Both the position numbers and the translations under genes were made by a program. 32,000 nt of DNA, taken from assembly GCA_030649345.1 (NCBI GenBank), contig JAUSKK010000042.1, positions 14,408 to 46,407 on the forward strand, given 5' to 3'. Positions within the stretch are counted from its first letter, which is position 1. Each line of letters opens with the position of its first letter. The DNA is from Candidatus Iainarchaeum sp. (lineage in GTDB: Archaea > Iainarchaeota > Iainarchaeia > Iainarchaeales > 0-14-0-20-34-12). Positions 1 to 21,240 of the stretch are shown piece by piece. A model generated the notes under the pieces. That model was given only the letters and a program-made list of their open reading frames with translations. It was not told the origin of the DNA and made no database searches.

Positions 1-142
1 AAAGCGTGGAACGCATATATACTATAATATTGCAGGGGTTTTTAAGGTTTGTTCATGTATTCATCTGATTAAATGAATAACTACACGTAGTTGAATGCAA
101 AAGATTATTATTTGTTCGATAAGTTATTACTATATTGATTTT

Positions 143-1732: not shown

Positions 1733-4700
1733 TTATTGATCTTTTAAAGTTTTCAAAATACCAGAAAGTGTATGTGTATTTTGCTGGGTTGTCTGGCCGG
1801 TAGTGGGTGGCAAAACAGTTCCGCCTTGAGTTGCACCCATACTTGAACTAGGCTTTATCCAATTACGGTAAGCGTAAACTCTATAGGTTGTATTAGAACT
1901 TACAGGACGAGTGTCAGTAAATTTATTTGAGTTAGGCTGAGTGGCATCCAATAATTTAACAATTCCACCAGGCAAACGTCCAGATTGCCAAGATAATGAA
2001 TCTGACAGTTCATCACAACTTGGATTTCCAGAAGCAGTCAAACGATCACATCTTACTACTGCATAAGCTTGAGCATTATCAACAGCCAGCCAAGTAATCG
2101 TAGCATAATCTTCAGCTGAATTGTCAGTGAATGTATATCTGAAGTCGCCAATTACAGTACTTGCACTCAAACTAATTGACGCAAATTCAGTATGATTTCT
2201 CAATATAGCATTTGAGCCAAATTCATCAAACAATAAAACTGTAGCAAAATATCCGTGTTGTTTAGATAAGGATAATGCATTGCCTGCTTTTGAATAATTT
2301 TCTTGCATTAAATTAAAAGAATGTGTAAAAGCTAAAGAAAGAAGTTTTTCATCCAAAACTGTTTTTCTACCCACTGAACAAATATCTCCAATAGTTTTGT
2401 CATCAGATTCATCATCAGGAGTTTCATCAGCAATAACTAAATCACCCAGTGCATTCAAAGTTTCACTGTTAACAGAACTATCCAAATTAAGTTCTTGTGT
2501 GCACAATAAAGGCAAATAGTAAGCCACTGTATCAGGTTCAGGTGCAGTCCAGTCAATTTTTACACTGCCATAATCAACTGCAGTATTTGTAATTTCAAAT
2601 TCTACAACTTGTTCTTGGAATGGGACCCAAGCACTTTCACTTAAACTTTCGTAGTCTGCAGTTGTTCCATCTGGATTTGTTGGAAGAGGATTTGGATAAG
2701 CTATAACTCTATATTTTGTATTTGCATAAGGTTGATGTTGGTCTGCAGCAGCTTGTTGGCTGTTGGTTGGATCAGTAAATGGAGAACTAACATATTGTTT
2801 TTCGGTTAAGTCTATTTCTTCAGCATTTGCACAGTCACCAGAAACTGTAATACCTGCATCGCATCTAAGTACACCAAAATTGTAAGAAATATCTGGAGTT
2901 ACAGTCCATTCCAATTCAGCTGTTGTTGCGTCCGTTGAAGGAGTAACAGTTAATTCAATTGTTGGCGTTCCTGGAGCAACTCCTGTAACTGCATGCACTG
3001 TTCCAGTTAATGCAGATTCAATTATTTTTTTCTGTAAAGGAATCAAACATTCCAAGATTGTTTTACAATCAGTAGCTGGAGTTGAAGCTGGTGTTCCGCC
3101 TACTAAAGCAGGCTTTACAGAATCTAAAGCATTCGTCCAAGGACTTTGAGCAATTCTTTCGCTGCCATTATAAACATTCACAGAATAAAAAGTATTTATT
3201 GTAACTGGCGTTGCATCAAGATTTGAACTAGTAGAATCTGTTGGCGCTTCAAAATAATTCAGCCCAGAATCATCTGATTTTATTTCATAATCATGCAAGC
3301 AAGAAATAACTCCTTCTCTGCTGGCTTCACAGCGGGTCATGGAATAACTTAAATTAGGTATTTCTAGTGCAGTCCAAGACAACCTTGCTTTTTGTGCACC
3401 CTGTTCGTCTAAGCTGACTTCGATTGTTACATCCAAAACTGTTGGAACAGTATACCAGCCGTTTCCGCCTGTATGTATGTCGCCTACATTAAAGCTGTCT
3501 ACGTAATAGCTTGTTGTTTCAACAATAGGTTTGTTGTTTACAGAATCAATGAATGCAGTATAACCATCGCCTTCAGTTCTTGGGATATTTACAGCACCAC
3601 GAGTAATTGCAGTATCATTATTCATATCACAAGGAATTGAGCCATCAGTATTTACAGCATCACATCTGTAAGGTTTAAAGAATTCAACATCTGGATTGTG
3701 GGCTTTCATATACAAGCCTGCAAAAATTCCGCCATTTTGTTTGATTAAATCAATACTTAATTCTGGAATATCATCCACTCGAATCCAGTCTGGGCTTTCA
3801 GCTAAAACAGTATCCGTATCCTCTGCATTCACTGCAATTATTTTGTACGAAAACAAACCAATATTTTCTCGGCTTTTTAGTTCATCTACATTATTAACAA
3901 CAGTAATTCCGTCTGGGTCTTTAAATTCTGTTTCAGTTCCTTCCATATAATTATTCAACAAAGAAAAAGCACCATCGTACTTACCATAACCATCTTTGGA
4001 ATCACAATCACTCAACTCTTGTTCAGCACATCTAAGCACATCGTATTGCATATTTGTTAAATTATTTGAAGTCCAAGTCAAAGTAACATTTTCTTGGTCT
4101 GTTCGTTCAACTGTTAATTCAACACTCGGTGCATTGGGATCAACTTCAACAACATAATCTGTACACTTTTGAATACTGGTTCCATCATCCAATGGAATCA
4201 CTGCACATAAAGTACGATTGCCTTCACGGGTTTGTTTAAATGTTCGAGTAATGACTGGATAGTTTCCGGATGGCATGGATTCAATTTTTTCTTTAAGCAA
4301 ACCAGCATTTTTTAATTCAGAATCAGCTTGGTTTGTTTCTTTGGATTTGAATACCAGCATTACATTTTCTAAATTATCAGCTGTTTTATTGTTTAACCTA
4401 ACATGGAATTCGAGTTGCTGGCCAACATAAACGTTTGAGCCCGGAGTAATTAAGTCAATTGATGAAATTTCTACAGTGTCAGCAGTTACACTTGCACCTG
4501 AATTTTCTTCTTTTTCTGTTGGTTTTTGCCAATCGCCGGAAGTCGTTACAAGCGTCCGGGTTGCTGGATCAAATGCTCCAATTCTGTAAGAAAAATCATC
4601 GATGTTTTCTCTGGATTTTAATGCATTAAGAGCATCTGGAATATTATCTGGATCAACAAAGCTTGTTTCAGTAATAACAGTACTTTCATCTAACAAACTA

Positions 4701-7700
4701 TCAGGCCCATCATCACAGTCAGCAATATTTTCTTTTTCACACCTAAACACATTGTATTCAACATTATTCGGCATGTTTTCTGCAGTCCAAGTTAAAGTAA
4801 TTTTATCTCCTTCGCGTACAGCTTCGTCTAAAGTAAGAGTTGGTTCATCCGAAGGTTCTGGTCCGCCTACAATACTTCCGTCTACTCGAACCATTGGACT
4901 TGTTCCTAAAACAGTTCCATCTGGATCTTCTGCAGTGACTTGATATTTTGAGGCATCATTTGGGTGAGAATCTATAATGGAAGTATCATCAGTAGTTGGT
5001 TCTGCTCCATTGCGAACCAAGGGAACTAAAGGAACTAAATCATCGTCTACACAATCATTTGGATTTGGTTTATCACAGCGTACTGGTCTGAAAACATAAT
5101 CTCCTTCAGGACCCCAAGATAAATGAGCACCATCAGATTGTTTGTCTACAGTTAAAGTTACGTCTACTTCTGGCATAGTATCTGGAATAAGTCCCCAGCC
5201 GCTTTCAGCAATTGGGTTTCCGTCACCATCTTCAACCAAGACATTGTAAAATGTTTTATTGGTTGCAGTATTGGGATCAATGGCTTGAGTTACACTGCCT
5301 GAAGTAACAGGTATACTGGTTGGATTTTTTGTACAATCTGTTGAATCATCATTCATTTCATCACAGCGCACAGGATTATATTTAACGTCTGCTGGAGGAT
5401 TTTCTAAAGCAGTCCAAGTTAGTTTAGTTTTTCCGCCAAGCAAAGGAGTTATAGTTAATGTAACAACATTATTAGGATCAGCTGCAGGCAAAGCATCAGG
5501 AGTAAATGCTCCTGCATTTTTGAATAATCTAGCATAAGCTAAAACTGTGGCCACATAATCTTTGGCTTTTGCACTTAAGTTTTTACAATTTACATTTCCT
5601 GGACCATATCTGTAAGAAGCAATTACTAAAATTTCTCGCGTAGTTAAACCTAAATCTTCCAAGCCAGGCAAAGTCATTGCATTGTATTGTGGACCTTCAC
5701 ATTTCAGTCTTTGTTTTGATTTTGCATAGGTTTCAGCTGCACGCTGTAAATTAGCACCAGGAGTAGTCCATAAAGGAATATTTTCTCCAGTACACACAAC
5801 AGTATTACAGGAAAAAATTTCACTTTTAGTTGCATCCGCAGAATTAATAGTTCCAACATCAACAGCAACTACATTTCCGTGTTTCGGTTGAGATCTTTGT
5901 TCTCGCAAAGAAACGTTTATTGTTTTTAAATCATCGGCTGGATCAGGAACTTCAACTGTTTTTCCGCCAAATAAATAGTCAGCAACATCAGCAGGTCTTT
6001 GATAACCCCAAGCTAAATTAATAGTTGAAACCAGCCCCAAGCCTAAGCCAATTGGTTTTTTATCCAAACAAGCAAATGCTTGATTGTCAAATTTGGATTC
6101 AGCAGCACTAATTCCAAACAAAATAGCTGGAGGAACATCTAAACTAGGCTGATTTGAAATTGCAGTTACATTTTCAACAAATTCTGGATTTAAAACAGTT
6201 CTAGCATTTGCTGAATTAATATTTCTTCCAATTCCTGTTTCAGGACATTCTTCTCCAGTTTGACTTGAAAAATAATCATTTAATTGCATTATATTAGTTA
6301 AAGCAGGTAAATTTAATTCTCTGGATTTAGCTTCTACAGCTGGCGCAATATCTTCCAATTCTTCAGTTAACTGAGTTCTGGATCTTCCAGGCCCAATTAA
6401 TGGCGGGCCCAGATCAGCACCAGTTGGAGTTGGTCGTCTAAGTACATCTGAACCAGTTCCAGCAGGAGCAGTACCTGCACCAGCACCTGAAACACTGGCA
6501 CCAGCACCTGAAACACTAGCACTAGCTCCAGCAACAGCTGCAGCTGGGCTTGGAGGAGGAGTAGAACCAGCATCTCGAGCTTCTGTACTTGCAAGTAAAG
6601 CAGGAATATTAACCCAATCACTGGCAGTGTACAAGTTACCATTGGAAGAATCGTAAACTCCTACAGCCACTTTTTGACTGGATTGTACACCATATTCACC
6701 AGATGAATACGAAAATCCAGGCCCAGATAAAGATTGCACACCAGGAGTTATTTGCGCTTCAGTTACAGTCGTTGGAATATCAGAACAATTTCCTGTTCTG
6801 CAGGCGAATAAATAATAGTTTGGATTTGAAATTGCTGGACTTACAGCAACTGCAACAGAAATTTCATTATTTGATTCCCTAGTTGGAGTTAAAGTAACTA
6901 CTGGATTTGAAGCATTTGAAGTTGAGCTAACTGAAACCCAATTACTTTTTCCGATAAATGGACCATTAGGTAAACTTTTTGCATAAACAATGTACCCAGT
7001 AGTTCCAGAAGCATTGGCTGGTTCATAGACAGTGGAGGTTGTATCTACTTGACCATCAAAGAAAAAACTAGGGCATTCATTGTTTACAAATTCATAATAA
7101 CAAGAAAACACAGAATAATTTAGTGGTGGATAAGGTCCATCAATTGTCCAAGCTAATTGAATGCGTCCAGGATGATCTGTGCTTGGAGTTTGAGTTAAAT
7201 TAATATTAGTTGGAACGCCTTTGTTTTTTTCGTCTCCAGCTAAAGCCAACAAAGCTTTGACATCATTGCTGGTGAAAGTAAATTTACTGACAGTAACTTT
7301 TCCGTTTTGGTTGGAATATTTTAAAGTACCAGTGCCTGAAAAAACAGTAAAATCCGCACTATTTGGGTTTAAGATTCCGATAAAACTAGTTTTATCAAAA
7401 CCCAATTTGTTTGCAAATTTTTGAGGAATAGTACTCGAAACTCGATTTTCAGAAAAAGCATAAAACCAAGCATTCAGCAAATCCAATAAAGGAGTTCCAG
7501 TTGTTTGACTGCCTGGAAAAATTTTGACATTAATAACCCAAGTATCGTCTACACTGAATTCATTTACTCCAGAACCAATGTCAGTTCGCTTAAGTTGAGT
7601 TTCACTTACGTTAAATCCAGTTTCTTTAAATGAATTCAATTGATCTTCATTGTATGCCAAAGTCGTACTATAAAGTGCTGAGTTTACGCTGACTAAAAAT

Positions 7701-7747
7701 AAGAGTAAAAAAAATACTGCAATGAGATTGAAACGAACACCATTCAT
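1733..7747 (-). CDS. Giant secreted protein (2004 aa): signal peptide, one SLT-like lytic transglycosylase domain, one CARDB-like module and about 11 FN3-like modules with paired Cys
   Basis: 6 kb open frame. The track start is GTG at 7756; the first ATG is at 7747 (MNGVRFNLIAVFFLLLFLVSVNSA, signal-like). Repeating W-T/S ... Y-x-V/P-x-R-C-x(7-10)-C units (YNPVRCDEMNDDSTDC, FRPVRCDKPNPNDC, YNVFRCEKENIADC, YDVLRCAEQELSDC, and others). All 32 mature Cys occur as close pairs. No C-terminal TM segment. Confidence 0.9.
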   Translation of the reverse strand: MNGVRFNLIAVFFLLLFLVSVNSALYSTTLAYNEDQLNSFKETGFNVSETQLKRTDIGSGVNEFSVDDTWVINVKIFPGSQTTGTPLLDLLNAWFYAFSENRVSSTIPQKFANKLGFDKTSFIGILNPNSADFTVFSGTGTLKYSNQNGKVTVSKFTFTSNDVKALLALAGDEKNKGVPTNINLTQTPSTDHPGRIQLAWTIDGPYPPLNYSVFSCYYEFVNNECPSFFFDGQVDTTSTVYEPANASGTTGYIVYAKSLPNGPFIGKSNWVSVSSTSNASNPVVTLTPTRESNNEISVAVAVSPAISNPNYYLFACRTGNCSDIPTTVTEAQITPGVQSLSGPGFSYSSGEYGVQSSQKVAVGVYDSSNGNLYTASDWVNIPALLASTEARDAGSTPPPSPAAAVAGASASVSGAGASVSGAGAGTAPAGTGSDVLRRPTPTGADLGPPLIGPGRSRTQLTEELEDIAPAVEAKSRELNLPALTNIMQLNDYFSSQTGEECPETGIGRNINSANARTVLNPEFVENVTAISNQPSLDVPPAILFGISAAESKFDNQAFACLDKKPIGLGLGLVSTINLAWGYQRPADVADYLFGGKTVEVPDPADDLKTINVSLREQRSQPKHGNVVAVDVGTINSADATKSEIFSCNTVVCTGENIPLWTTPGANLQRAAETYAKSKQRLKCEGPQYNAMTLPGLEDLGLTTREILVIASYRYGPGNVNCKNLSAKAKDYVATVLAYARLFKNAGAFTPDALPAADPNNVVTLTITPLLGGKTKLTWTALENPPADVKYNPVRCDEMNDDSTDCTKNPTSIPVTSGSVTQAIDPNTATNKTFYNVLVEDGDGNPIAESGWGLIPDTMPEVDVTLTVDKQSDGAHLSWGPEGDYVFRPVRCDKPNPNDCVDDDLVPLVPLVRNGAEPTTDDTSIIDSHPNDASKYQVTAEDPDGTVLGTSPMVRVDGSIVGGPEPSDEPTLTLDEAVREGDKITLTWTAENMPNNVEYNVFRCEKENIADCDDGPDSLLDESTVITETSFVDPDNIPDALNALKSRENIDDFSYRIGAFDPATRTLVTTSGDWQKPTEKEENSGASVTADTVEISSIDLITPGSNVYVGQQLEFHVRLNNKTADNLENVMLVFKSKETNQADSELKNAGLLKEKIESMPSGNYPVITRTFKQTREGNRTLCAVIPLDDGTSIQKCTDYVVEVDPNAPSVELTVERTDQENVTLTWTSNNLTNMQYDVLRCAEQELSDCDSKDGYGKYDGAFSLLNNYMEGTETEFKDPDGITVVNNVDELKSRENIGLFSYKIIAVNAEDTDTVLAESPDWIRVDDIPELSIDLIKQNGGIFAGLYMKAHNPDVEFFKPYRCDAVNTDGSIPCDMNNDTAITRGAVNIPRTEGDGYTAFIDSVNNKPIVETTSYYVDSFNVGDIHTGGNGWYTVPTVLDVTIEVSLDEQGAQKARLSWTALEIPNLSYSMTRCEASREGVISCLHDYEIKSDDSGLNYFEAPTDSTSSNLDATPVTINTFYSVNVYNGSERIAQSPWTNALDSVKPALVGGTPASTPATDCKTILECLIPLQKKIIESALTGTVHAVTGVAPGTPTIELTVTPSTDATTAELEWTVTPDISYNFGVLRCDAGITVSGDCANAEEIDLTEKQYVSSPFTDPTNSQQAAADQHQPYANTKYRVIAYPNPLPTNPDGTTADYESLSESAWVPFQEQVVEFEITNTAVDYGSVKIDWTAPEPDTVAYYLPLLCTQELNLDSSVNSETLNALGDLVIADETPDDESDDKTIGDICSVGRKTVLDEKLLSLAFTHSFNLMQENYSKAGNALSLSKQHGYFATVLLFDEFGSNAILRNHTEFASISLSASTVIGDFRYTFTDNSAEDYATITWLAVDNAQAYAVVRCDRLTASGNPSCDELSDSLSWQSGRLPGGIVKLLDATQPNSNKFTDTRPVSSNTTYRVYAYRNWIKPSSSMGATQGGTVLPPTTGQTTQQNTHTLSGILKTLKDQ
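5522..6334 (-). other. SLT / family-1 lytic-transglycosylase-like domain of the 2004-aa protein (residues ~475-745)
   Basis: FGISAAESKFDNQAF (E-S-x-F; the Glu codon is at 6098..6100). VIASYRYGPGNVNC corresponds to the AYNxGPG motif. DYVATVLAYARLF is collinear with the SLT-like domains of the 2285-aa paralog. The GLMQ position is divergent (GLGLGLVS) and there is a long insert. Confidence 0.55.
6371..6586 (-). other. Low-complexity Ala/Gly/Ser/Pro linker (residues ~391-462), locally GC-enriched
   Basis: Encodes TEARDAGSTPPPSPAAAVAGASASVSGAGASVSGAGAGTAPAGTGS...GPPLIGPGRSR. It lies between the N-terminal FN3-like pair and the SLT-like domain. The stop-poor composition produces the spurious track ORF 6397..6642. 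Confidence 0.85.
6477..6518. repeat. 21-bp tandem repeat, 2 copies (20/21 identical)
   Basis: gcaccagcacctgaaacactg (6477..6497) followed by gcaccagcacctgaaacacta (6498..6518). Encodes SVSGAGA twice on the minus strand. Confidence 0.9.
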
Positions 7748-7897
7748 GCAATTCACTTAGTTCCGTGAGAACAATTTTTGCTATATTATACTAATATAAA
7801 GGATTATTTAAAGCTTTGCTGGAGAGATTGACAAAAGCTCAGTAAATAAATTAAGTTAATTCCAAATTCAGCCCAACCAGAAAAGAATAAAAACAGT

Positions 7898-7927: not shown

Positions 7928-8431
7928 ATGACATTAATGAGGAAAGTTGTGCTGGATGCAGATGGCTTGATAAAATTGACCAAAGCAGACATTCTGGAAA
8001 AAATTGTTGAAATTCTGAATTGCAATATATCGCAGGAAGTTTTCACAGAAAGCGTAGAAGAAGGAAAAAAGCTTTTATTTGAAGATGCATTTAAAATTGA
8101 GGAATTGATTCAAAATAAAAAAATAAAAGTTCATGCAACAGAAAAAAAGGAATTCTCGGACTTGGATGGATTTGGAAAAGGAGAAAGAACCAGTTTGGAA
8201 TTGTATTATCAAATTCATGCACAGGCCATTATTAGCGATAATCAAAGATTTTTAAAAGAATTGGAAAAAAAACAAGTGCCGTTCACTACACCGGCAGGAA
8301 TACTTCAGGCACTGTATTGGAACAAAAAATTAAACAAATCAGAGACATTGAATGCATTGGAAAAAATGAAACCATTGATTCAATCAGAAATTTATATCAG
8401 CTTAAAAAAAGAAGTGGAGGAATCTAAATGA
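7928..8431 (+). CDS. PIN-like nucleic-acid-binding protein (DUF3368-type), toxin-like partner of UPF0175
   Basis: VVLDADGLIKLTKADILEKI N-terminus. GKGERTSLELY...AIISDNQRFLKELEKKQVPFTTPAGILQAL matches the DUF3368 pattern (GEaeaI.LA...DD..aR..A...g..v.Gt.giL). ATGA overlap with the next gene. The start could be 7928 or 7937. Confidence 0.7.
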   Translation: MTLMRKVVLDADGLIKLTKADILEKIVEILNCNISQEVFTESVEEGKKLLFEDAFKIEELIQNKKIKVHATEKKEFSDLDGFGKGERTSLELYYQIHAQAIISDNQRFLKELEKKQVPFTTPAGILQALYWNKKLNKSETLNALEKMKPLIQSEIYISLKKEVEESK

Positions 8432-8733
8432 AAGCAAACACTGTCAGTTATCCATTAAGAATTTCAGAGGAAATAATGCAGATCACTGAAATACGAAAGC
8501 GCGAAGAACATGTGGACAAAACCACAGCCTTAAGACAACTCTTGTACAAAGGAGTGGAAGACTATGTTTTGGAGTTGTATGCAAGCGGACGAATCACTCT
8601 AACTAGAACGGCAGAATTATTAAACAAAAATGTTCACGAAGTACTTCAATTGGCTGGAAAAAAAGGAGTGAAAACTGGAGCAAACTCAGAACAACAAAGG
8701 CAAAGTGCGAAAACAGCAGAAAAATTGTTCTAA
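8428..8733 (+). CDS. UPF0175-family antitoxin-like protein
   Basis: VEDYVLELYASGRITLTRTAELLNKNVHEVLQLAGKKGV matches the UPF0175 helix-turn-helix core (A.elY..g.iSlg.AAEl.g....f...l...gi). GGAGG lies 8 nt upstream. 4-nt overlap with the DUF3368-like gene. Confidence 0.7.
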   Translation: MKANTVSYPLRISEEIMQITEIRKREEHVDKTTALRQLLYKGVEDYVLELYASGRITLTRTAELLNKNVHEVLQLAGKKGVKTGANSEQQRQSAKTAEKLF

Positions 8734-8785
8734 ATTCAAAATTATTTGCCGCAAACACAGAATTGACCTAAAAAAGAGACAAATT

Positions 8786-9049
8786 ATGGCTAATAAAAAA
8801 ATTCGGATCACGCAAGAAGCCTATGATTTTTTGGCTTCACAAAAGCGCGAAAATGAAAGTTTCAGTCAAGTAATAATTCGAATATATTCTATGGATCCTG
8901 CTGGACAAAAAATGGATAATCTTAAAATTGCAGACCGGCTAGTGCAAAAAAGCCAGCTAACAAAAAAAGACGTACAAAAGCTCAGCAAAAAAGTAAACCA
9001 AGCTGCTGGAAAACATGCAAAAAAATTATTAAAAAGTTTAAAAAACTAA
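8786..9049 (+). CDS. COG1753/PF02697-type antitoxin-like protein (87 aa) with no adjacent PIN partner
   Basis: The ATG at 8786 gives MANKKIRITQEAYDFLASQKRENESFSQVIIRI. This is collinear with the VapB at 24052 (MAKLIAVSEPAYQELKNLKKENESFSKVILRL). The Lys-rich C-terminal tail differs. The track ORF 8705..9049 looks like an N-terminal over-extension. Confidence 0.6.
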   Translation: MANKKIRITQEAYDFLASQKRENESFSQVIIRIYSMDPAGQKMDNLKIADRLVQKSQLTKKDVQKLSKKVNQAAGKHAKKLLKSLKN

Positions 9050-9059: not shown

Positions 9060-9671
9060 TTAGCAGGTTTGTCTTAATTGATTAATGCCTGTTTGAGATT
9101 GAGCTAAATTATCCTGCAATACTTGTTCGTCTACAATAAAATTAGAAACTTCAGCGGTTACAGCTTGCGCAGGATAAGCCGATTGAATGGCTTGAACTTT
9201 AGCATTGACAGCCAAAGACTTATTCACAGTCTCAACTGTCTTGGCATGGGTTTGTTCAAACAAACTTAAACTCGGACACGGATTGGAAATAACTGCATCC
9301 AATTGATTGCTGGCTTTCAAAGAATTATATCTTGCTTGAGTTGAGTCAACCAACAATAAATGCAAATCAGTTAATTCTAAAATCGCTTGTTTGTCTTGTT
9401 CGTTTACAAATTTTTTTCCAGAAATTTCTGTTTTAAAATCCTGCAAAGCTTGCTTGACTTCCGTAAAATTTTCATTAGAGTATTCCAATAATTGTTCTCC
9501 GATTACAGCAAAACTAAAACTTCGGGTAATTCGAATATTATCCAATTGGTCAAATGCATTTGTAAAAGTCAACGGAGGTACTGGAAGAGTTTGAGCTGGC
9601 TGGAATACAAATACATAAGCCAAAACAGCGACTACAACTAAAACCAATAAGATTGCGAATTTGTTTGCCAT
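9060..9671 (-). CDS. Membrane-anchored coiled-coil protein, paralog A (203 aa)
   Basis: ATG at 9671. Single N-terminal TM segment (FAILLVLVVVAVLAYVFVF), then a Gln/Leu-rich helical region. Two Cys (NPCPSL and the C-terminal RQTC). Collinear with 17252..17848. Confidence 0.8.
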   Translation of the reverse strand: MANKFAILLVLVVVAVLAYVFVFQPAQTLPVPPLTFTNAFDQLDNIRITRSFSFAVIGEQLLEYSNENFTEVKQALQDFKTEISGKKFVNEQDKQAILELTDLHLLLVDSTQARYNSLKASNQLDAVISNPCPSLSLFEQTHAKTVETVNKSLAVNAKVQAIQSAYPAQAVTAEVSNFIVDEQVLQDNLAQSQTGINQLRQTC

Positions 9672-10102: not shown

Positions 10103-10345
10103 TTAACGCGCCAATTTTTTTAAGCGATTAAATTGCACTTGAATTGGAATCAAAATCTTCTCAGTTTTTTGCCCGCGTTTTTTTAAATTAAAAATAGCGA
10201 TTCCGATTACATTTCCTTTGGAATCTACGCGTTCAAAAACGTCATTTCCCAAGTCACGAAAAAAGCCTTTCCGATTAGAAGCTGAAAATTCCAAAAAGTC
10301 ACTTTCAGTATCCAACCAAACTTGAAGTTTTCCATTCGCTTTCAT
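10103..10345 (-). CDS. DUF2283-family (YuzE-like) antitoxin-like protein (80 aa)
   Basis: MKANGKLQVWLDTESDFLEFS...VFERVDSKGNVIGIAIFNLKK matches the DUF2283 pattern (...y d.e.D.lyi......vv.Dld.eG.vvGIEIl..s). The track start at 10363 is TTG; the first ATG is at 10345. Confidence 0.7.
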   Translation of the reverse strand: MKANGKLQVWLDTESDFLEFSASNRKGFFRDLGNDVFERVDSKGNVIGIAIFNLKKRGQKTEKILIPIQVQFNRLKKLAR

Positions 10346-10362
10346 AGTTATATTATACAACA

Positions 10363-10386
10363 AAACTTATTTTTAAAGCTTGGGTT
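10363..10386 (-). promoter_or_regulatory. BRE/TATA-like promoter for the DUF2283 cassette; second copy of the 24-bp direct repeat
   Basis: Identical to 9693..9716. It abuts and overlaps the first base of the stop codon of the 2285-aa gene (10386..10388). The TATA-like core lies about 20-33 nt upstream of the ATG at 10345. Confidence 0.5.
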
Positions 10387-13300
10387 TATTTCAAACCAGT
10401 CTTACGCCAACTGGTTTCAGCTAAAACAAGACCGCGTACATCGCTGGCTACAACTTTAACAAAATAATCTTGGGTTCGGTCAGGCAAAACAAAACTATAG
10501 TCTGTTTCGTTCAAAAATTGATTTTCAATTTTGCACGCCCCTTCAACATTTGAATTCAAAGTACGCAATGATTGACCACGCTTCAAGTTCCGTAAAAGCA
10601 ATGCTTGAATGTCTTGCTCGGTTAATTGAGGCGTAGTATGACACCACCAGATGTCATAATTAATATTTTCTTCTGGATTCCAGGCAGTCCAATACAAAGA
10701 CACAGTAAACTGAGTTGGATCACTTGCAATGGATTCAACATTCAAAGTAGTAATATTCAAGCTGGCTTGTTTGCGTTCAATAAATAAACTGCGAATAATG
10801 TTTTCATTTCCGTATTGAATACATTGCAACAAAGAAGTACATTGTCTTTTTTGTTTAAATTCATAGGGCAATTCAATAATGGAAGAATGCGTCCAATCTG
10901 AACCATTTGGTTTACAGCCTAATTTTGGACAAATGGAAACACTTAACCACAAATTAGGTTCAGTGTAATCTTTCAATGCTTGTTCTAACGTTTTGATTTC
11001 GTTTCCAATTTTTACATTCTGCGTTGGACTATACTTGAATGTTTTAATTTGTTCTTGGTTTGCTTGAATTGCTTTGGGGGGTGAAGAAATAAATTGCTGT
11101 AAATTTAGTCTATCCGCGCCCCAGTTTCTTTCAGCAGTTTTCCATAAATCAATAGAGTAATTGTAAAAATCACACGTTGAATTGAATTGGATTTTCAATT
11201 CTTGTTCTTGAGATAATTTTCCAGTCAAATTATTTAATTCAGAAACATTTGTGATTGTGACAGTACAAGAAGAATTTTCTGAATTGACTTGGGTTGGAGC
11301 TTGAACAAAGTCTGAAACTTTTAAGGTTTCTTTAATATCTGAATCTATTTTGGCTGAATCTACAACACGCAAGGCTTGAATTTTGTAAAATAAATTACCA
11401 GAAGCAGAATTATGCACAGATTCTGTTTCAGTAGTTCGAGTGAGTTCAGTTAGCTTATCATCACTGCAGTTTTCAACACTAGATTCAGTACAAACCAAAA
11501 CAGAATATTGGTTGGCTAAAGGAACTGTTGGCCAACGTAATTCAACAATTAAGCTATGAGTTCGTTTGGCTTTGACAATAAAAGCTAAATCATTTAATTG
11601 TTCTCGCAATGTTTGACAGCGTTCTCTGATTTTTTGTTTCACGTCATCATTGCCAGTAATTGCGGCCAGTTGTTCTTCTAGGTTTAAAGGACACGAATCC
11701 AGTAAACCCAATAATAAAGCGCGTTGTTCTTCCGGCAAACTTAATGCACTGATTTCTTGTTTTAAAGAATCAGCTGTAATGATTACATCCAAGCATTTTT
11801 CTTCTGTGGTTCCAGAAATGCGGGCACAAATTCTATGCTGGCCTTCTTTGAGTCTTCCAGTTAAACCTGGAGCTAAAGTAACAGTTTGAGATTCTGAAAT
11901 ATCAATAGGCTGAGTTAAATAAGATGAAATATTCAAAGATTGGCCGTCAGCAAATAATTCAACTCCAGCTTCTCCTATGAATTTAATGCTTCCAGCGTTT
12001 TCCAATTCAACACGTGCTTCCAGGAAAGCATCGGCCGCAATATTGGGAAAAGGAATTAATGTAAATGATTTAACTTTCAAGTCAGTTTTTTCTGCACTTA
12101 AAGGAATGGGTTGTGCAAAATTAATTTCTGAAAAAGTTTGCTTCCAGCCAAATACATTTTGAACATAATTCAGCAAAGAATCTCCGCCTACATCAGAGCT
12201 AACTTTCAATAAATATCCTGCACCTCGATTGCCATTGTAAGGTGTTAATACAAAATGCGCACTAGCATTTGGATCGGCACAATTCATGTGTTCAATCGGT
12301 GTTGTGCCCAGTCCTTGATCGGATGCAATGCTTAAAACTTCTACAAAAGAAACTCCAGGCAATCCTTCGACTTGTTTGCGTAAAATTGCTTTACAAGGAT
12401 TTTCTGGAAGTACGGATTCAGCAAAGTTTTTAACTAATTTCATGTTTCCAGTTAAGTTTGCAATTCCGACAGTTAAATTTTCTTCAGGATTTGTTTTTGC
12501 GGTTTCTGCTTGAGTATTCAAATAATAAAAAGGCAATTGCATTAAACCGTAATTTCCCATTTCTGGACTTGGAGATGAATGGGTTTCAATTTTGCCGGCA
12601 TCAAAAGAAGGATTGCGGACCATAATCATGGCGGCAATTAAGTCTTTGGCTTTATTGGAAAAAACATGTTCATTGTCAAGTGATTCACTTAATTTTTGAA
12701 TTGCTTGACCATATTTGATAGCTTGTTGTGCCTGGTAATAATCATACTGGTTTGAAGTTTTTCCTGTTTCAATCAATGAATGCAAAGACTGAATGCTTCC
12801 ATTAAATTGTAAATACAAAGTAGCTGTATTTGTGCTTAATCTAGGAATTAAAAAGTCTGGAACTACAGGCACTGAAATCCATTCAGTTACTGCAACTAAA
12901 ATTTGATCTGAATTGTAGGCAAATAATTTGTAAAATTTTACGCTTACAGCTTCATTTAATCCAATGGAATAATTTCGAATAACTGGTTCATTAATTAATT
13001 GAACTTGAGTTCCAGAACCGCACAATAAATCATTGGTTTCTTTACAAGAACTTAGTTTAAAAGATTTAATGGAACTATCCAAAACTGCTGGCAAACCAGT
13101 ACTCCAGTCAAAACTTAAATTTTCAGTGTCCAGCCAGCGAAGATTCATAGAAGCTTTTGGCACTTCTGCTAATTGAACTTTAGAAGAAGCCAATATAGGT
13201 TCGCGTACTTTACCTAAAGATTCGTGTAGTTTATATCGAATAGCTTGAACATAATACACTGGCAAAAAATCTTCGTCAGATAATTCAGAATCAGAATAAA

Positions 13301-16300
13301 CTAAATTGGTTTGAGTGGAAAGCAATTCAAAGTTTGCAGTATCCAAACATTCAGTTATTCCAGCAGCACAACGATATACTTCGTAGCTTTCAGCTTGCGG
13401 ATGCTTGCTCCAAGTCAATTGCATAGAATCATTCAGTAAACGATTTACGTTTAATCTAAAATCAAATCTGCTTAATTCGTCTCTTAGTTTTATGCAATTT
13501 GCTTTAATTTTTTCTTTCAATGCAGTGAAATCTGTATTTGGATATTTTCGTGTAAGGTCTAAAAATACAGTATCTAAATCACTTTCAGAGGCAGGGCAAG
13601 CAATTGTAAGATTGGCTAAAGCTTCTCGGTCTATGGGTTGAATCGGCAAACGTGCAATCTCCGGAGCTAGTTCAGCTATAGGTGAAGGTTTGGGAACAAT
13701 TTCCACTGCAGGCAAACAGGATTGAATAGTAGTTTCATAGTCTTTGACTTTAGCGCAAATTAAAATATTGGTTAAAGATTGAGTTAAACCTTTTTCTTCA
13801 ATGGATTCAGGAGTCTGCGGTGCTTGATATAGGTGAGTCAATAGTCCTTGATCCAATTTAACTTTGGCAACAGGACCAGTGTGTTGTTGGGTTGATTCCA
13901 AAACTGAAACCAATTCTTGCGATACCACAGTAGATCCAATGTTTAATTGAATTACGGCATTTTCTAAATTTACTGAACCATTGTTTTGAATTGAAATTGA
14001 AAATTCTTGTTCTGAATCTTCTTCAAGTTGGTTGCTTGCAGGAATTGATGAACTATTCAAAGTCAATAAAACTTGTCTGGGGTCAAATGCAGGCAAAGGT
14101 TTTACTGGAACAATAGTCCAAGAACTTTGAGCTATCACTTGATTGCTTGAATTCAGTGCTTGAATTTTGTAAAAATTTTTAACTTCACTTGCTGGAATAC
14201 CAAAAGTTAAAGCATTGGGATCTGAAATAATTTCTGGCGGAATTTGAGTAAGCGAACATTCACTTGCATTGATTTTGTCACAAGTTAAAATTTGAAATGT
14301 TTGCATTTGTGGTTTAAGTAAAAGATCGTATTGCCAATGTAAGCTTAAATCACCTGAAGAAATCCATTCAGAGCTTAAAGTCATATCTGAAACAGGTAAT
14401 GCTTGAGGTGGAACTGTGCGTTCTTGTTCGAGTCTTTCTTGTTCTTTGAAATAATTTTCAAATAAAACTTTCCAAGCTAAAACTCGAATGGCATAATAAT
14501 GATCTCCACCAGCAGTACTTTGTACAATTTTCTGGCCTTTTTGTGCACCTTTTCCATAAGACACACAATCTGTTCCAGCTGGACCCCAATTGTAGCCATT
14601 GACTGCCAAAGCTTCATGCATGGTAATTCCGTATTCTTCTAAGCCTGCAATCAAACCATACGTATTTTCGCATTTGTTGTAAACAGTAGCTGTTTGCTGG
14701 GGTTTATAGCCAGGGTATGCTGACAAGTAAGCAATTAAAAAATTGGTTCCTTTTTCCATATTTTTTTCTGGATTTTGTTTAGTTCGTTCAGTTAAAACAG
14801 GCCCAATATTGAATCCATTAAAGTGAGTAGAATTAAACGACAAGCGAGCAATATGCATTAAACCATAAGATTGCTGCCTAGGCTCTAAGCCTGCACTTTC
14901 ATTGGCTGAATTTTTTTCAAAATTGCTTTCTTGTTTAATCACTCCAGCCAATAATGATTTGCCGGAATTTCGAATTACAGTTCCAACTTCTTCCTGCAAA
15001 CGTGCTCCATGTAAAATCACTAAATCGCGCACTTGTTTGGATGCATGGGTCCAAGTGCGTTCCACATTTTCTGAAGTAAAAGTTCCTCCAGCAAATGGTC
15101 CACTGCGAATAATTTCTCGAATAACTGTATCCAGTCTTTTTACTTTTCCATCCGGTGTATCCACGTAAACAATATTGGACTGCAATGTTGCTGGATCTGT
15201 AGCTGTTTCAACTGAACAAGATTTAATCGCTGGATCTGAAACCAATACTGCACAAATATTAATGGACCGGCGCAATAAAAACAAACCACTGCCGTGATAC
15301 CAAAAGGGCTCGGAAAATTCTTGTCCTGCCTTTACAGTTGCTTCGCTTTTTTTAATATCAACACCATTAATAGTAAATTTTACTTGGATGTCTTGAGATT
15401 GTAAAGAATTCAATTGAGCCCGCATGGAAAACTTTTGGCCTGGAACAATTATTTCCGGCGCCAAAACAACAGCTTGAATAGCCAAAGGAGGAATTGCAAC
15501 TTGAACAGTTAATGGACCAGTGCAAAATTCTTGGTCTGGATTTTTAATTTGAGCACACAATTCATAACTTCCTGAAGTTACGGAAGGCAAAGTGCTTAGA
15601 TCAATACTGGAAGGAACACCAACTTGTTTTTGAGCTTCAAGTGTATCCATTTCATAACTGGCTAATTGAGCACGAACTGTTCCTTCTTTTTTCAAAACTA
15701 AATTTACTTGCGGAGTCACAGAATTTTCAGTTAAATTTTTCACAGTAGTTGTAATATTAAATCCTGTTCCAGCTACAATGGGCTCAGTGAAACTCAATTG
15801 AATATCTAAAGCTTTGGCTGGAGCTCCTGAGCCAGCAGAGGCTGAAGTAGCTGAAGCTTTTTGAGCATTTTGATTGGCTAAATTTTTTAATATTTCTGCT
15901 TTGATAGTTTGAAGTTTTGCAGGATCTTTCATTTCAACTTTAGCCAAATTTGCAACCCAATACTTTGCAAAACCAATCAATGGAACTTTGCTGACTGAAA
16001 AAGTATAATCCAACAAACCATCGGAAACCGTCATGGATTGTCGACCAGTGTAAGACCACACGGATTGACCAGCACCAGTGTCACTTGGATACGGAACTAA
16101 AGGAAAATTAGGAACTTGAATTCCTTGAGTGGAAAAATTAATTTGAGTTTGAGTTGAATAAACATAAAATTCGTCTGGCGCTTGCAGACAATCTTGGCCA
16201 AAATAGTTTTCACAAACTGAAAAGTAAACAATAATTTTGGCATCTTCTGAAAAACCATTTTGACTTGAAAAAAATACTTCTTGAGTACTGAGATTGTCTT

Positions 16301-17243
16301 GTCTTAAATTAAACGAAACTGGAACAGTTTGATTTTTGAAATTTTTGGATTCATCGCGATAACCATTCCAAGATTTAATTAAAAAAACACTAATTGGGTC
16401 TTGTTCAACAACTGCTGGTTCAGGAGTAGCTACTGGCTCTCCAGGCAATGGTTCAGAAGAAGGAGCTTCAGGATATAAATCTGCACATGAAAATCCTGTG
16501 GTTTCAAAATTAACTTCCGTTTCACAGGTTTCTTTAGAATAAATACTTGAAAATAAAGAATGTGTAAATAAGCCAATATTTTCCCAGTTAAATTCAGGAG
16601 ACGGATCCCATTTACGGTCGTCAGCTTTTCGCGTACCTGCATTGCATGTTTCATAAAATCCAGCAGAAGGTTCTAATTCATAATGACCGCGAACAAGAGT
16701 ATTGGCAATATTAAATTTATTTTGATAAATTTGCTGGAAATATGTAAATAAAGAATTCAATTGAGCATACTGTTGAACAGTATATTCTTCTCCTTTTCTT
16801 CCAGAATTTTCCAATTCAATTCCAATGGATAATTGTTCCATTGAATCTAAACTTTGCAAATCAGAAACAAATTGAGTATTGTTGGCACACGCAGAAGTAT
16901 TTTGCCCAGAACCTTTTAAATGATCTGCAACTTTTTCTAAATCACAAATATAATGAATGGTTCCATCTTTAGCAATCAAAAGATGAGCAGAAGTTCTATT
17001 TTGTTTAAATAAACGCAAAGAATTTGCAGTATCTGTTCCAGTATGATGCAAGACAACTGTTACTGAATCCGTAAAGTTTGCAGGCGTTCGATTAAATCCT
17101 GCTTTCGGATTAGAACACAAAAATCCTTCGGTTCTATGATCTTGAACATTTAAAACAGAGGGAAGTAAATCAATGGCAAAAATTGAAACAGAAAACAAGA
17201 ACAAAATTGAGAAAACCAATGCCAAGCGAAGAAAAGGTTTCAT
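10386..17243 (-). CDS. Giant secreted multi-domain murein-hydrolase-like protein (2285 aa): signal peptide, Amidase_2, two SLT-like domains, CARDB-like and FN3-like modules
   Basis: 6.9 kb open frame. The track start is GTG at 17261; the first ATG at 17243 gives MKPFLRLALVFSILFLFSVSIFA. See the domain sub-features. Cys occur in close pairs inside modules (YEVYRCAAGITEC, SSCKETNDLLC, VLVCTESSVENC, LCAQIKNPDQEFC, ICAVLVSDPAIKSC). No C-terminal TM segment. Confidence 0.9.
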   Translation of the reverse strand: MKPFLRLALVFSILFLFSVSIFAIDLLPSVLNVQDHRTEGFLCSNPKAGFNRTPANFTDSVTVVLHHTGTDTANSLRLFKQNRTSAHLLIAKDGTIHYICDLEKVADHLKGSGQNTSACANNTQFVSDLQSLDSMEQLSIGIELENSGRKGEEYTVQQYAQLNSLFTYFQQIYQNKFNIANTLVRGHYELEPSAGFYETCNAGTRKADDRKWDPSPEFNWENIGLFTHSLFSSIYSKETCETEVNFETTGFSCADLYPEAPSSEPLPGEPVATPEPAVVEQDPISVFLIKSWNGYRDESKNFKNQTVPVSFNLRQDNLSTQEVFFSSQNGFSEDAKIIVYFSVCENYFGQDCLQAPDEFYVYSTQTQINFSTQGIQVPNFPLVPYPSDTGAGQSVWSYTGRQSMTVSDGLLDYTFSVSKVPLIGFAKYWVANLAKVEMKDPAKLQTIKAEILKNLANQNAQKASATSASAGSGAPAKALDIQLSFTEPIVAGTGFNITTTVKNLTENSVTPQVNLVLKKEGTVRAQLASYEMDTLEAQKQVGVPSSIDLSTLPSVTSGSYELCAQIKNPDQEFCTGPLTVQVAIPPLAIQAVVLAPEIIVPGQKFSMRAQLNSLQSQDIQVKFTINGVDIKKSEATVKAGQEFSEPFWYHGSGLFLLRRSINICAVLVSDPAIKSCSVETATDPATLQSNIVYVDTPDGKVKRLDTVIREIIRSGPFAGGTFTSENVERTWTHASKQVRDLVILHGARLQEEVGTVIRNSGKSLLAGVIKQESNFEKNSANESAGLEPRQQSYGLMHIARLSFNSTHFNGFNIGPVLTERTKQNPEKNMEKGTNFLIAYLSAYPGYKPQQTATVYNKCENTYGLIAGLEEYGITMHEALAVNGYNWGPAGTDCVSYGKGAQKGQKIVQSTAGGDHYYAIRVLAWKVLFENYFKEQERLEQERTVPPQALPVSDMTLSSEWISSGDLSLHWQYDLLLKPQMQTFQILTCDKINASECSLTQIPPEIISDPNALTFGIPASEVKNFYKIQALNSSNQVIAQSSWTIVPVKPLPAFDPRQVLLTLNSSSIPASNQLEEDSEQEFSISIQNNGSVNLENAVIQLNIGSTVVSQELVSVLESTQQHTGPVAKVKLDQGLLTHLYQAPQTPESIEEKGLTQSLTNILICAKVKDYETTIQSCLPAVEIVPKPSPIAELAPEIARLPIQPIDREALANLTIACPASESDLDTVFLDLTRKYPNTDFTALKEKIKANCIKLRDELSRFDFRLNVNRLLNDSMQLTWSKHPQAESYEVYRCAAGITECLDTANFELLSTQTNLVYSDSELSDEDFLPVYYVQAIRYKLHESLGKVREPILASSKVQLAEVPKASMNLRWLDTENLSFDWSTGLPAVLDSSIKSFKLSSCKETNDLLCGSGTQVQLINEPVIRNYSIGLNEAVSVKFYKLFAYNSDQILVAVTEWISVPVVPDFLIPRLSTNTATLYLQFNGSIQSLHSLIETGKTSNQYDYYQAQQAIKYGQAIQKLSESLDNEHVFSNKAKDLIAAMIMVRNPSFDAGKIETHSSPSPEMGNYGLMQLPFYYLNTQAETAKTNPEENLTVGIANLTGNMKLVKNFAESVLPENPCKAILRKQVEGLPGVSFVEVLSIASDQGLGTTPIEHMNCADPNASAHFVLTPYNGNRGAGYLLKVSSDVGGDSLLNYVQNVFGWKQTFSEINFAQPIPLSAEKTDLKVKSFTLIPFPNIAADAFLEARVELENAGSIKFIGEAGVELFADGQSLNISSYLTQPIDISESQTVTLAPGLTGRLKEGQHRICARISGTTEEKCLDVIITADSLKQEISALSLPEEQRALLLGLLDSCPLNLEEQLAAITGNDDVKQKIRERCQTLREQLNDLAFIVKAKRTHSLIVELRWPTVPLANQYSVLVCTESSVENCSDDKLTELTRTTETESVHNSASGNLFYKIQALRVVDSAKIDSDIKETLKVSDFVQAPTQVNSENSSCTVTITNVSELNNLTGKLSQEQELKIQFNSTCDFYNYSIDLWKTAERNWGADRLNLQQFISSPPKAIQANQEQIKTFKYSPTQNVKIGNEIKTLEQALKDYTEPNLWLSVSICPKLGCKPNGSDWTHSSIIELPYEFKQKRQCTSLLQCIQYGNENIIRSLFIERKQASLNITTLNVESIASDPTQFTVSLYWTAWNPEENINYDIWWCHTTPQLTEQDIQALLLRNLKRGQSLRTLNSNVEGACKIENQFLNETDYSFVLPDRTQDYFVKVVASDVRGLVLAETSWRKTGLK
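12117..12749 (-). other. SLT-like domain 2, residues ~1505-1715, with a non-canonical catalytic motif
   Basis: NYGLMQLPFYY is conserved and LLNYVQNVFGWKQTF is collinear with domain 1. The E-S-x-F position reads VRNPSF (12603..12620), so there is no Glu. Confidence 0.5.
14457..15029 (-). other. SLT lytic-transglycosylase-like domain 1, residues ~745-935
   Basis: AGVIKQESNFEKNS (the Glu codon at 14928..14930 checked by hand), SYGLMHIA, ALAVNGYNWGPAGTDC, HYYAIRVLAWKVLF. Confidence 0.7.
16587..17078 (-). other. N-acetylmuramoyl-L-alanine amidase (Amidase_2/PGRP-like) domain, residues ~62-225
   Basis: VVLHHTG (17037..17057 checked by hand), SAHLLIAKDGTIHY, SIGIELENSG, YTVQQYAQLNSLFTYF, VRGHYELEP. 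The order and spacing are typical of AmpD / T7-lysozyme / PGRP zinc amidases. Confidence 0.7.
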
Positions 17244-17251
17244 ATATGATA

Positions 17252-17848
17252 TCACCCACACAAAGCTTTTAATTCGTTCACTTGTTCCTGTGAAGAGATA
17301 ATCAAGTTTTGGAGTATTCTTGTTTCGGTTTGTAAATCCAGTAAGGAAAGCTCAGCAGCTTGCGCAGAATATTGTGTTTCAAATTCATTAATTTTTTGGT
17401 TCAAAGCAAGAGTTTTAGAAAACACTTCTTCGAGTACTGTTTGTCTTTCTTCAAATTTAGAAATATTCACACAAATTTGCTCTGAGCTTATTTCGTCTAA
17501 TTCAAAATTGAGTTTAGCTAAATTTTTTCTAGATTGAGTTTTTTCTGCATTCAATAAATAAATATCCGTTAACATAACAACTGAAGGACTGCTTGAATTT
17601 TGAGTTTTATAGGTTTGCAGAGATTGGATTAATTTAGTTAAACCAGAATCTTGTACTTGAATTAAGTCAAAATCAGTTAGTACAAATTCTATTTGGTTTT
17701 CAGAATAAAAAAACGCAATCTTTGCTTGAGTTTCTGTAATGGATTTAGGTTGAATGCCAGAAAAAAGAGTGGAAAGATACGGAAATGCTAAATACAAAAT
17801 TCCAATAAGAACTAAAACAAGGATTAGGTTTTTCCAGCGGTTTTCCAA
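17252..17848 (-). CDS. Membrane-anchored coiled-coil protein, paralog B (198 aa)
   Basis: N-terminal TM segment (LILVLVLIGILYLAFPYL), then a helical Gln/Leu/Glu-rich region. Two Cys (EQICVN and the C-terminal KALCG). Only a TTG start is available at 17848. The stop is 8 nt before the ATG of the 2285-aa gene. Confidence 0.75.
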   Translation of the reverse strand: MENRWKNLILVLVLIGILYLAFPYLSTLFSGIQPKSITETQAKIAFFYSENQIEFVLTDFDLIQVQDSGLTKLIQSLQTYKTQNSSSPSVVMLTDIYLLNAEKTQSRKNLAKLNFELDEISSEQICVNISKFEERQTVLEEVFSKTLALNQKINEFETQYSAQAAELSLLDLQTETRILQNLIISSQEQVNELKALCG

Positions 17849-18318: not shown

Positions 18319-18541
18319 GAAGTTCACTTCGAGTTTTGTATCGCAAATTTGAAACTTTCATTCCTTTTTCAATTACAGACAAAGCTTGGTCAATTACAGT
18401 GTCTTTTTCATTTAACCAGACAGAAAAGGCTTCGCTTACAGCTTTAGCCAAATAACCTTTCTTTTTGCCGTATTTTTCTTCCGCTTTTTTTCTAAATTGG
18501 TCAGCTAACTCTTCAGATATATTCAAAGTAATCGTATGCAT
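18302..18541 (-). CDS. vapB: Ribbon-helix-helix (CopG/VapB-type) antitoxin
   Basis: MHTITLNISEELADQFRKKAEEKYGKKKGYLAKAVSEAFSVWL fits a beta-strand plus two helices RHH pattern. It lies directly upstream of the PIN gene and overlaps it. Confidence 0.75.
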   Translation of the reverse strand: MHTITLNISEELADQFRKKAEEKYGKKKGYLAKAVSEAFSVWLNEKDTVIDQALSVIEKGMKVSNLRYKTRSELHERTH

Positions 18542-21200: not shown

Positions 21201-21240
21201 AAGATTTAGGTGGAAAAATTACTTGCTGAGAGAGGAATGT

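Follow-up and report, generated by a model that had tools for sequence, protein, structure and literature searches.

A 32,000-nucleotide stretch of contig JAUSKK010000042.1 (the window below), from a metagenome-assembled genome (MAG) labelled as a Diapherotrites archaeon, encodes on its minus strand a giant protein of about 2,000 residues, here called protein A (1733..7747). Protein A starts with an export signal, consists largely of divergent fibronectin type III (fn3) domains that carry a covarying pair of cysteines, and is paralogous to proteins with recognised peptidoglycan hydrolase domains; one of its segments keeps four motifs of the SLT-type lytic transglycosylases in collinear order. 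We regard it as moderately probable that protein A is an exported giant of a DPANN archaeon in which a stapled fn3 stalk bears a GH23/SLT-like head directed against bacterial peptidoglycan, and that it is one of three paralogs encoded at the same locus.

Export signal and stapled fn3 modules

The open reading frame (ORF) of gene A spans 1733..7756 on the minus strand and opens at a GTG codon (7756), which gives 2007 residues. Starting at the ATG at 7747 gives the 2004-residue protein that a first-pass annotation of this DNA had described, and NCBI holds the identical protein as MDO8428669.1 ([quoted passage not shown]). Residue numbers used here are those of the 2007-residue ORF; NCBI numbering is lower by 3. 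The N terminus is a signal peptide or N-terminal anchor, MNGVRFNLIAVFFLLLFLVSVNSA (7679..7747, minus), recognised by a Kyte-Doolittle scan together with reading of the sequence. In that scan it is the sole hydrophobic stretch of the protein.

Comparison with curated families does not recognise the repeated modules of protein A directly. Seven modules taken in isolation had no match to Pfam fn3 (PF00041), PKD, or Big at a cut-off as loose as E<=10, nor did the complete sequence match Pfam fn3 at E<=0.1; it is too divergent for a direct PF00041 match. Their fold, the existence of intermediate sequences, and a reverse search identify them as divergent fibronectin type III domains, copies of a Cys-stapled form that is widespread in prokaryotes.

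For the fold, we aligned 14 units, ten from protein A and four from its paralog protein B, and used this alignment to model the unit at residues 764-862 with AlphaFold2. The model has six strands, with a predicted local distance difference test score (pLDDT) of 87.7 and a predicted template modelling score of 0.79. When it was compared with PDB using Foldseek, nearly all matches, and every top-ranked one, were FN3 domains (template modelling scores of 0.55-0.69), with integrin beta-4, PTPRF, chitinase A1, titin, and cytokine receptors at the top. By model and structural match, then, the module has the FN3 beta-sandwich fold. Three columns of the 14-unit alignment are invariant, namely, the two Cys and one Tyr; the latter is the F-strand Tyr of the tyrosine corner, and the B-strand Trp is present as L-x-W in most units. 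Pairwise identity to the first unit is 17-32%.

The intermediate sequences came from a profile search. A profile of the units, searched exhaustively with HMMER against 1.84 billion representatives, matched 550 protein clusters at E<=1e-3, of which 109 reach <=1e-10 and 18 reach <=1e-30. Many of the matched proteins are giants themselves, with up to 51 matched stretches each, and the best of them carry R-C-x(4-9)-C in almost all units (for example, 27 in the match labelled P0002 and 32 in P0006), typically as YRIERCSGAGC, YNVYRCEGTGC, or YEIYRCDGGGTTAC. All seven of the matches that we scanned are strong Pfam fn3 proteins, with E-values from 2.7e-21 to 1.8e-141 (P0002, 1.8e-141 over 13 stretches; P0013, 1.2e-79; P0009, 2.2e-72). 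Since the unit profile reaches P0002, P0009, P0013, and others at E-values of 1e-38 to 1e-73, the modules of protein A are connected to plain fn3 by transitive homology. In addition, one unit from an external match hits PDB FN3 domains at 3e-8, and NCBI names one of the matched proteins [quoted passage not shown] (MCY4338333.1).

The reverse search gave the same answer. A profile made from 748 external units only recovers 11 modules in protein A, with 255.9 bits compared to no more than 7.8 in 1000 shuffles, and five modules in protein B. Thus, the approximately 11 modules of about 100 residues noted at first reading are real, and the eight R-C...C strings then quoted all occur in protein A. 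The R-C that had been called invariant is found in only 8 of the 11 modules; the others read S-C-x8-C (C219), A-C-x4-C (C319), and L-C-x40-C (C1752).

Together, the modules account for about 60% of protein A. All are encoded on the minus strand. Module 1 (residues 189-279; 6920..7192; S-C219-x8-C228) and module 2 (286-386; 6599..6901; A-C319-x4-C324) are detected by the external profile with independent E-values of 1e-3 and 1.3e-6, respectively. Module 3 (764-856; 5189..5467; R-C798-x9-C808) is the one that was modelled, and it is identified by the model, by Foldseek, and by the external profile. The same profile detects module 4 (865-959; 4880..5164; R-C894-x7-C902), module 5 (974-1072; 4541..4837; R-C1006-x7-C1014), module 6 (1211-1318; 3803..4126; R-C1243-x7-C1251), module 8 (1445-1544; 3125..3424; R-C1476-x9-C1486), module 9 (1600-1702; 2651..2959; R-C1632-x9-C1642), and module 11 (1870-1966; 1859..2149; R-C1903-x10-C1914), while module 7 (1330-1439; 3440..3769; R-C1365-x10-C1376) is detected weakly, with an independent E-value of 0.026. 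Only the N-terminal half of module 10 (1720-1868; 2153..2599) is detected; this module has a 40-residue loop bounded by C1752 and C1793 as well as a further insertion. There are no DNA-level repeats under the fn3 modules. This absence and the low identity between units indicate that the duplications are old, and the low identity also means that a ratio of nonsynonymous to synonymous substitution rates between modules is not meaningful.

After the signal peptide, protein A has 32 Cys, as counted at first reading, which fall into 16 consecutive pairs. In order, the gaps within pairs are 9, 5, 59, 5, 38, 10, 8, 8, 14, 8, 11, 10, 6, 10, 41, and 11 residues, and one pair is separated from the next by 31-180. 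In thirteen pairs the gap is <=14; when 32 Cys were placed at random 200000 times, no placement gave that many such pairs. The statement that every Cys has a partner 4-41 residues away therefore stands for the pairing, but not for its range, given that Cys504 and Cys563 are 59 residues apart; that these two form a pair is assumed.

In the 748 external units, the two Cys of the staple covary strongly, as a disulphide predicts: 650 units have both, 86 have neither, and only 12 have one. Of the 655 units with the first Cys, 577 have Arg in front of it, but Arg is also present in 83 of the 93 units without Cys at that position, so it belongs to the general Y-x-V-x-R motif of strand C rather than to the staple. 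In the modelled unit, Cys36 is the last residue of strand C, and Cys46 immediately precedes a short C' strand. The model that had been called for at first reading thus places the pair at the two ends of the C/C' loop, although the loop between them is less confident (pLDDT of about 67). The data support a covarying Cys pair at the C/C' loop, and we infer that one disulphide per module would form across it.

Compared with the prokaryotic "GY-x-V-Y-R" fn3 in its R-C-x(4-9)-C form, the modules of protein A share the fold, the B-strand Trp, the C-strand Y-x-V-x-R, and the F-strand Tyr, and the two Cys that close the C-C' loop are placed identically. They differ in that the loops are longer (x7-10, compared to mostly x4 or x6-7 in the external units) and in that three modules lack the Arg. 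The earlier statement that the Cys-loop module matches no nameable repeat family is not supported: R-C-x(n)-C modules occur in hundreds of proteins, and the presence of R-C-x(4-9)-C in nearly all repeats of the best matches, together with the plain fn3 character of 7 of 7 scanned proteins, marks the Cys loop, as judged from these sequences, as a widespread staple of prokaryotic fn3 and not a new repeat family. The family is thus known; as for the staple, none of the PDB FN3 matches with alignments shown carries the Cys pair, and a limited literature search found no published description of a disulphide-stapled prokaryotic fn3. This Cys-stapled subtype is abundant in databases, and our limited searches found neither a solved structure nor a published description of it.

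The SLT-like segment of protein A

Motifs and profile comparisons place a divergent SLT/GH23-like (lytic transglycosylase-like) segment at residues 520-760 (5477..6199, minus). It contains the motifs AAE553SKF, GLGLVS in the place of GLMQ, HGN..VDVGT, and SYRYGPG. The strings quoted at first reading are all there, with AAESKF at 551-556, SYRYGPG at 714-720, and YVATVLAYARLF at 734-745. As judged by alignment to the E-S motif of Escherichia coli enzymes, the candidate catalytic acid is Glu553 (E550 in NCBI numbering), which is encoded at 6098..6100 (minus). Three Cys pairs lie in or adjoin the segment: 504/563, with Cys504 just upstream, 650/655, and 686/724. Of these, 686/724 is conserved throughout the four paralogous SLT-like copies, which belong to proteins A and B and to a third paralog described below.

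The segment is related to the SLT-like copies of the paralogs. In a BLASTP comparison, residues 666-874 of protein A align with residues 850-1072 of protein B at 25.6% identity (E 1e-11). When residues 470-762, which exclude fn3, were compared with a profile of the three other copies, they scored 24.7 bits, whereas 5000 shuffles reached at most 6.2; this match covers only residues 692-732. The segment had been described as collinear with both copies of protein B; statistical similarity to the paralogs is seen for its C-terminal half but not for the AAESKF-containing half taken alone.

As references for an independent test of the N-terminal part, we used the catalytic domains of Slt70, MltD, EmtA, and MltC of E. 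coli K-12, taken from the annotated genome. When protein A was compared with them on its own by hhalign, LDVPPAILFGISAAESKFDNQAFA fell on the catalytic E-S helix; the score, 19.6, is statistically modest, being reached by 5 of 300 shuffles. A profile-profile comparison of the four-copy paralog alignment, with protein A first, and the E. coli lytic transglycosylase alignment gave a probability of 80.8% and an E-value of 1.3e-5 over 100 columns. In these columns, AAE553S corresponds to E-S, GLGLVS to GLMQ, HGN..VDVGT to DPxxNIxxG, and SYRYGPG to AYNxGxG, all in collinear order. AAE553SKFD is thus aligned with the E-S of Slt70, MltC, MltD, and EmtA, and S-Y-R-Y-G-P-G (714-720) takes the place of A-Y-N-x-G-x-G.

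Protein A therefore shares with the E. coli family-1 lytic transglycosylases (Slt70, MltC, MltD, and MltE/EmtA; PF01464, GH23) the four collinear motifs E-S, G-L-(M-Q), (D-P)-x-x-N-(I)-x-x-G, and Y-x-x-G-x-G, a likeness seen at the level of sequence alone. It differs from them in its degenerate GLMQ and in some 60-70 extra residues between the motifs, including a family-specific segment with the conserved C686-C724, a predicted disulphide. An SLT-type domain in protein A is plausible. We read the segment as a real, strongly diverged GH23/SLT domain that appears to keep the candidate catalytic Glu and whose activity is uncertain.

Outside the fn3 modules and this segment, protein A has a Cys-free N-terminal region with no assigned fold (residues 27-188; 7193..7678, minus), and these approximately 160 residues have no match in Pfam, in PDB, or in the paralogs. 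An Ala/Gly/Ser/Pro low-complexity linker (6392..6580, minus) lies upstream of the SLT-like segment. It contains a 21-nucleotide tandem DNA repeat at 6477-6526 (2.4 copies, 93% matches) that encodes (SVSGAGA)n, is the sole notable tandem DNA repeat here, and is a possible site of length variation. A non-fn3 module at residues 1095-1205 (4142..4474, minus) ends in the hairpin L-C1184-x13-C1198. We considered CARDB (PF07705) for this module and rejected it; the likeness was by eye only, Pfam gave no match, and a profile of the CARDB-like modules of the paralogs scored 6.3 bits, inside the shuffle range. Upstream of gene A, about 40-65 nucleotides from its start (window 7757-7830, minus), we noticed by eye the AT-rich TATA-like strings TTTAAATA and TTTATATT, as expected of an archaeal promoter.

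Paralogs and neighbouring genes

That protein A is a giant paralog of the 2285-residue protein B (10386..17243, minus; MDO8428676.1), as had been proposed, is supported by the BLASTP match given above, by common module types, and by a common C-x5-C element. Protein B has an Amidase_2 domain (Pfam E 3.3e-15), an SLT domain above the Pfam cut-off (E 6.3e-11, 42.3 bits), a second SLT-like copy without the catalytic Glu, and five or six Cys-stapled fn3 modules. In the second copy (residues ~1530-1745; window ~12027-12674, minus), N-P (VRNPSFD) replaces E-S and GLMQ is kept; to judge from these motifs, it is probably a pseudo-enzyme. Protein B also has 34 N-x-S/T sequons, compared to 21.7 +/- 4.2 in shuffles, which hints that it may be heavily N-glycosylated; protein A has 20, compared to 24.3.

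A third paralog begins at the left edge of the window, where the codons for MRSTL (1..15, minus) are the start of a gene that continues past the edge. Its product, MDO8428666.1 (1735 residues; P0119 among the fn3 profile matches), is encoded on the same 46,407-bp contig as proteins A and B, so the locus holds three ancient paralogs. It has a signal peptide, Cys-stapled fn3 modules, an SLT-like domain, the element TCDTVIDCVLSGNKIIISK, and a C-terminal Peptidase_M23 domain (1.3e-24). Its SLT-like domain matches the SLT domain of protein B in phmmer (E 1.4e-12) and Pfam SLT at 0.0059. The heads thus differ among paralogs, with SLT plus M23 in the third, an SLT-like segment only in protein A, and amidase, SLT, and a second SLT-like copy in protein B. 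The NCBI source name of all three is "Candidatus Diapherotrites archaeon," and we read the whole, from its predicted domains, as a putative locus of three peptidoglycan-hydrolase genes in a "Candidatus Diapherotrites" MAG.

The C-x5-C-x7-I-I-x-S element lies exactly where the first-pass annotation had put it, as DCKTILECLIPLQKKIIES at 3014..3070 (minus) in gene A and at 10788..10844 in gene B, and it recurs in the third paralog. It had been taken as an argument for common ancestry of the whole architecture. In this regard, its recurrence in three of three paralogs, each time just before an fn3 module, speaks for the argument, but the 19-residue element alone scores 2.9 bits, below the shuffle maximum of 3.1, and a loose regular expression for it matches 3 of 147 unrelated proteins. 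Its support is moderate and positional. Common descent of the whole architecture is plausible from these sequence comparisons, which concern one genome.

The window has a G+C content of 32-39%, and scans for tRNA genes and Rfam families in it were empty. It contains cellular genes of archaeal type, which encode an XPD/Rad3 helicase that has the HBB domain, the proteasome-assembly chaperone PAC2, and a T2SSE ATPase; the first two of these neighbours, together with the NCBI source label, support the assignment of the contig to a DPANN genome. Toxin-antitoxin-type genes and other small genes separate the three giant genes, and the former are unusually dense between and around them. There are PIN genes at 931-1353, 17905-18327, and 24292-24681, VapB genes at 8705-9049 and 23680-24282, a UPF0175 gene at 8428-8733, a DUF2283 gene at 10103-10363, and a GNAT gene at 252-845. 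The PIN genes are not close paralogs of one another, and since this is true of the two that adjoin the giants, we rejected a segmental duplication.

Two proteins of about 200 residues, encoded at 17252-17848 and 9060-9671 (both minus), are paralogs of each other (28% identity over 151 residues, E 3e-12). Both have an N-terminal hydrophobic segment and no Pfam match. Because the gene at 17252-17848 overlaps the start of gene B by 10 nucleotides, the two may work with the giants as partner or accessory proteins. The region 21223-23995 (plus) encodes a T2SSE-family ATPase (4.9e-36) and, in an overlapping ORF downstream of it, a product that matches T2SSF weakly (4e-4, which misses the Pfam cut-off). 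These genes may belong to an assembly system like that of type IV pili or archaella near the giants, and the two overlapping ORFs downstream of T2SSE may be one frameshifted gene. A fourth very long protein (26670-31454, minus; 1594 residues) contains a hydrophobic segment at its N terminus as well as a stretch rich in Gly and Thr. It matches no Pfam family and not the Cys-stapled fn3 profile, has weak PHROG matches only, and is unrelated to proteins A and B.

Possible roles of protein A

Under the reading that we favour, the signal peptide would export protein A, leaving it secreted or displayed on the surface. The eleven divergent fn3 modules may form an extended stalk or spacer, or may be adhesive, each of them stapled and stiffened by one disulphide between strands C and C'. 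The SLT-like head (residues 520-760, with the candidate Glu553) would bind bacterial peptidoglycan by its glycan strands and would probably cleave these. The paralogs would contribute amidase, transglycosylase, and endopeptidase activities, and the three proteins together could cover three classes of murein bond. The likely role would be to attach to the wall of a bacterium, whether partner or prey, and to breach it locally or scavenge it.

Several results weigh against this reading. The Kyte-Doolittle scan found no C-terminal anchor or other cell-anchoring signal in protein A. Pfam SLT (PF01464) reaches only 15.0 bits (E 0.019) on protein A, compared to a cut-off of 21.3, and covers the C-terminal SYRYGPG motif only; none of the four SLT-like copies has an NCBIfam match; and searches of PDB sequences with the segment, with its profile, with the SLT domain of protein B, and with the whole of protein A gave no match. 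The AAESKF-containing N-terminal half is not significant by itself against the paralog profile, G-L-V-S stands where G-L-M-Q is expected, and an AlphaFold2 model of the segment from the four-sequence alignment was unusable (pLDDT 29.3). Furthermore, pseudo-enzymes occur in this SLT-like family, given that the second copy of protein B lost the catalytic Glu. Finally, no relatives of the non-fn3 parts of protein A were found outside the contig in searches that were word- or pattern-limited, namely, a word-indexed protein search and pattern scans of GTDB genomes and JGI metagenomes with protein A, the three-paralog alignment, and paralog B. In the word-indexed search, the whole of protein A found only itself, and two domain-sized queries, from proteins A and B, missed even their source proteins, so an absence of non-fn3 homologues cannot be claimed.

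Many of the same results fit the main rival, which we consider possible, if rather unlikely: protein A would be an adhesin with a dead enzyme, whose SLT-like segment only binds peptidoglycan or another glycan as a module on the fn3 stalk and leaves the cutting to the amidase, SLT, and M23 domains of the paralogs. A segment below every curated threshold, with GLVS for GLMQ and a weakly conserved N-terminal catalytic half, would be expected of such a wall-binding head, and the N-P of the second copy in protein B indicates that inactivation does occur in the family. Yet protein A keeps E-S-x-F-D, with its Glu placed on the catalytic Glu by both hhalign comparisons, and it also keeps Y-x-x-G-P-G. 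If the resemblance to SLT were too eroded for any function, protein A could instead have no connection with peptidoglycan and be a structural protein of the envelope or of the S-layer type, or a generic adhesin. Paired-Cys fn3 arrays are common in large prokaryotic surface proteins, fn3 makes up well over half of this one, and no curated catalytic family is detected in it. We judge this quite unlikely in view of the paralogy and shared locus with two proteins that carry three recognised murein-hydrolase domains, and of the match of the paralog alignment to the E. coli enzymes (E 1.3e-5). Least probable of all, in our view to the point of being negligible, is a lysin or tail-fibre-like protein encoded by a virus or mobile element integrated here. 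The many toxin-antitoxin genes around the giants would suit such an element, amidase plus SLT is typical of phage lysins, and protein B has weak PHROG endolysin/amidase matches. However, protein A has no PHROG match, and genes for a capsid, terminase, portal, or integrase are absent from the window. The genes nearby are those of an archaeal cell (XPD helicase with HBB, PAC2, and T2SSE/F), and signal peptides and lengths of about 2000 residues are unlike endolysins.

Large extracellular transglycosylase proteins have already been described in DPANN archaea, and we regard protein A as a very divergent addition to them. Pace- and Woesearchaeota have large extracellular murein transglycosylase proteins of up to 3000 residues, grouped as fam00969 (Castelle 2021, PMC8204110), and a "large lytic murein transglycosylase" of GH23 is reported in Woesearchaeota (Vigneron et al. 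2022, PMC9723730). Compared by description, protein A resembles these giants in its DPANN genome, a length in the range of 2000-3000 residues, an export signal, a probable SLT/GH23-type domain within a long non-catalytic array, and a proposed binding or degradation of the bacterial wall. Of the fam00969-type trait of a very long exported murein transglycosylase, the length and signal peptide are present, and the SLT domain is certain in protein B and only probable in protein A. In contrast to those giants, the MAG is labelled Diapherotrites, the SLT segment of protein A is far more divergent and falls below the Pfam threshold, and the locus has three paralogs that add amidase and M23 domains. 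The giant predation proteins of Omnitrophota ("Archaeovorins"), some of which have an SLT domain (West-Roberts et al. 2023, bioRxiv 10.1101/2023.11.21.568195), are likewise very long extracellular proteins with adhesion-type repeats and a proposed role in degrading the wall of another cell, but they are bacterial, 10-40 times longer, and built from another domain set, and we found no sequence relationship to them. Killing of bacteria by archaeal peptidoglycan hydrolases has been demonstrated (PMC12352652).

A broader idea, which we offer only tentatively, is that the locus is a dedicated and anciently diversified murein-attack kit of Diapherotrites-type DPANN, with heads that would cut the glycan (SLT), the link to the stem peptide (amidase), and the cross-bridge (M23), all carried on stapled fn3 rods. 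If so, the host or prey of this lineage would be bacterial and not archaeal, and the head of protein A would represent a new GH23 subfamily that has diverged strongly, or else a pseudo-enzyme that now serves as a wall-binding module.

Overall, our results overturn no current view; what is worth keeping is a locus of three murein-hydrolase paralogs and a stapled fn3 subtype for which limited searches found no description. For protein engineers, the naturally stapled C-C' loop on a common scaffold is a minor point of use, and the amidase, transglycosylase, and M23 domains of the three-gene locus are possible sources of antibacterial enzymes. If the favoured reading of protein A as an exported giant directed at bacterial peptidoglycan is true, a Diapherotrites-labelled genome would join the DPANN lineages with giant wall-degrading surface proteins. 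This would speak for interactions of some DPANN archaea with bacteria, through attachment, predation, or scavenging, and not with archaea alone.

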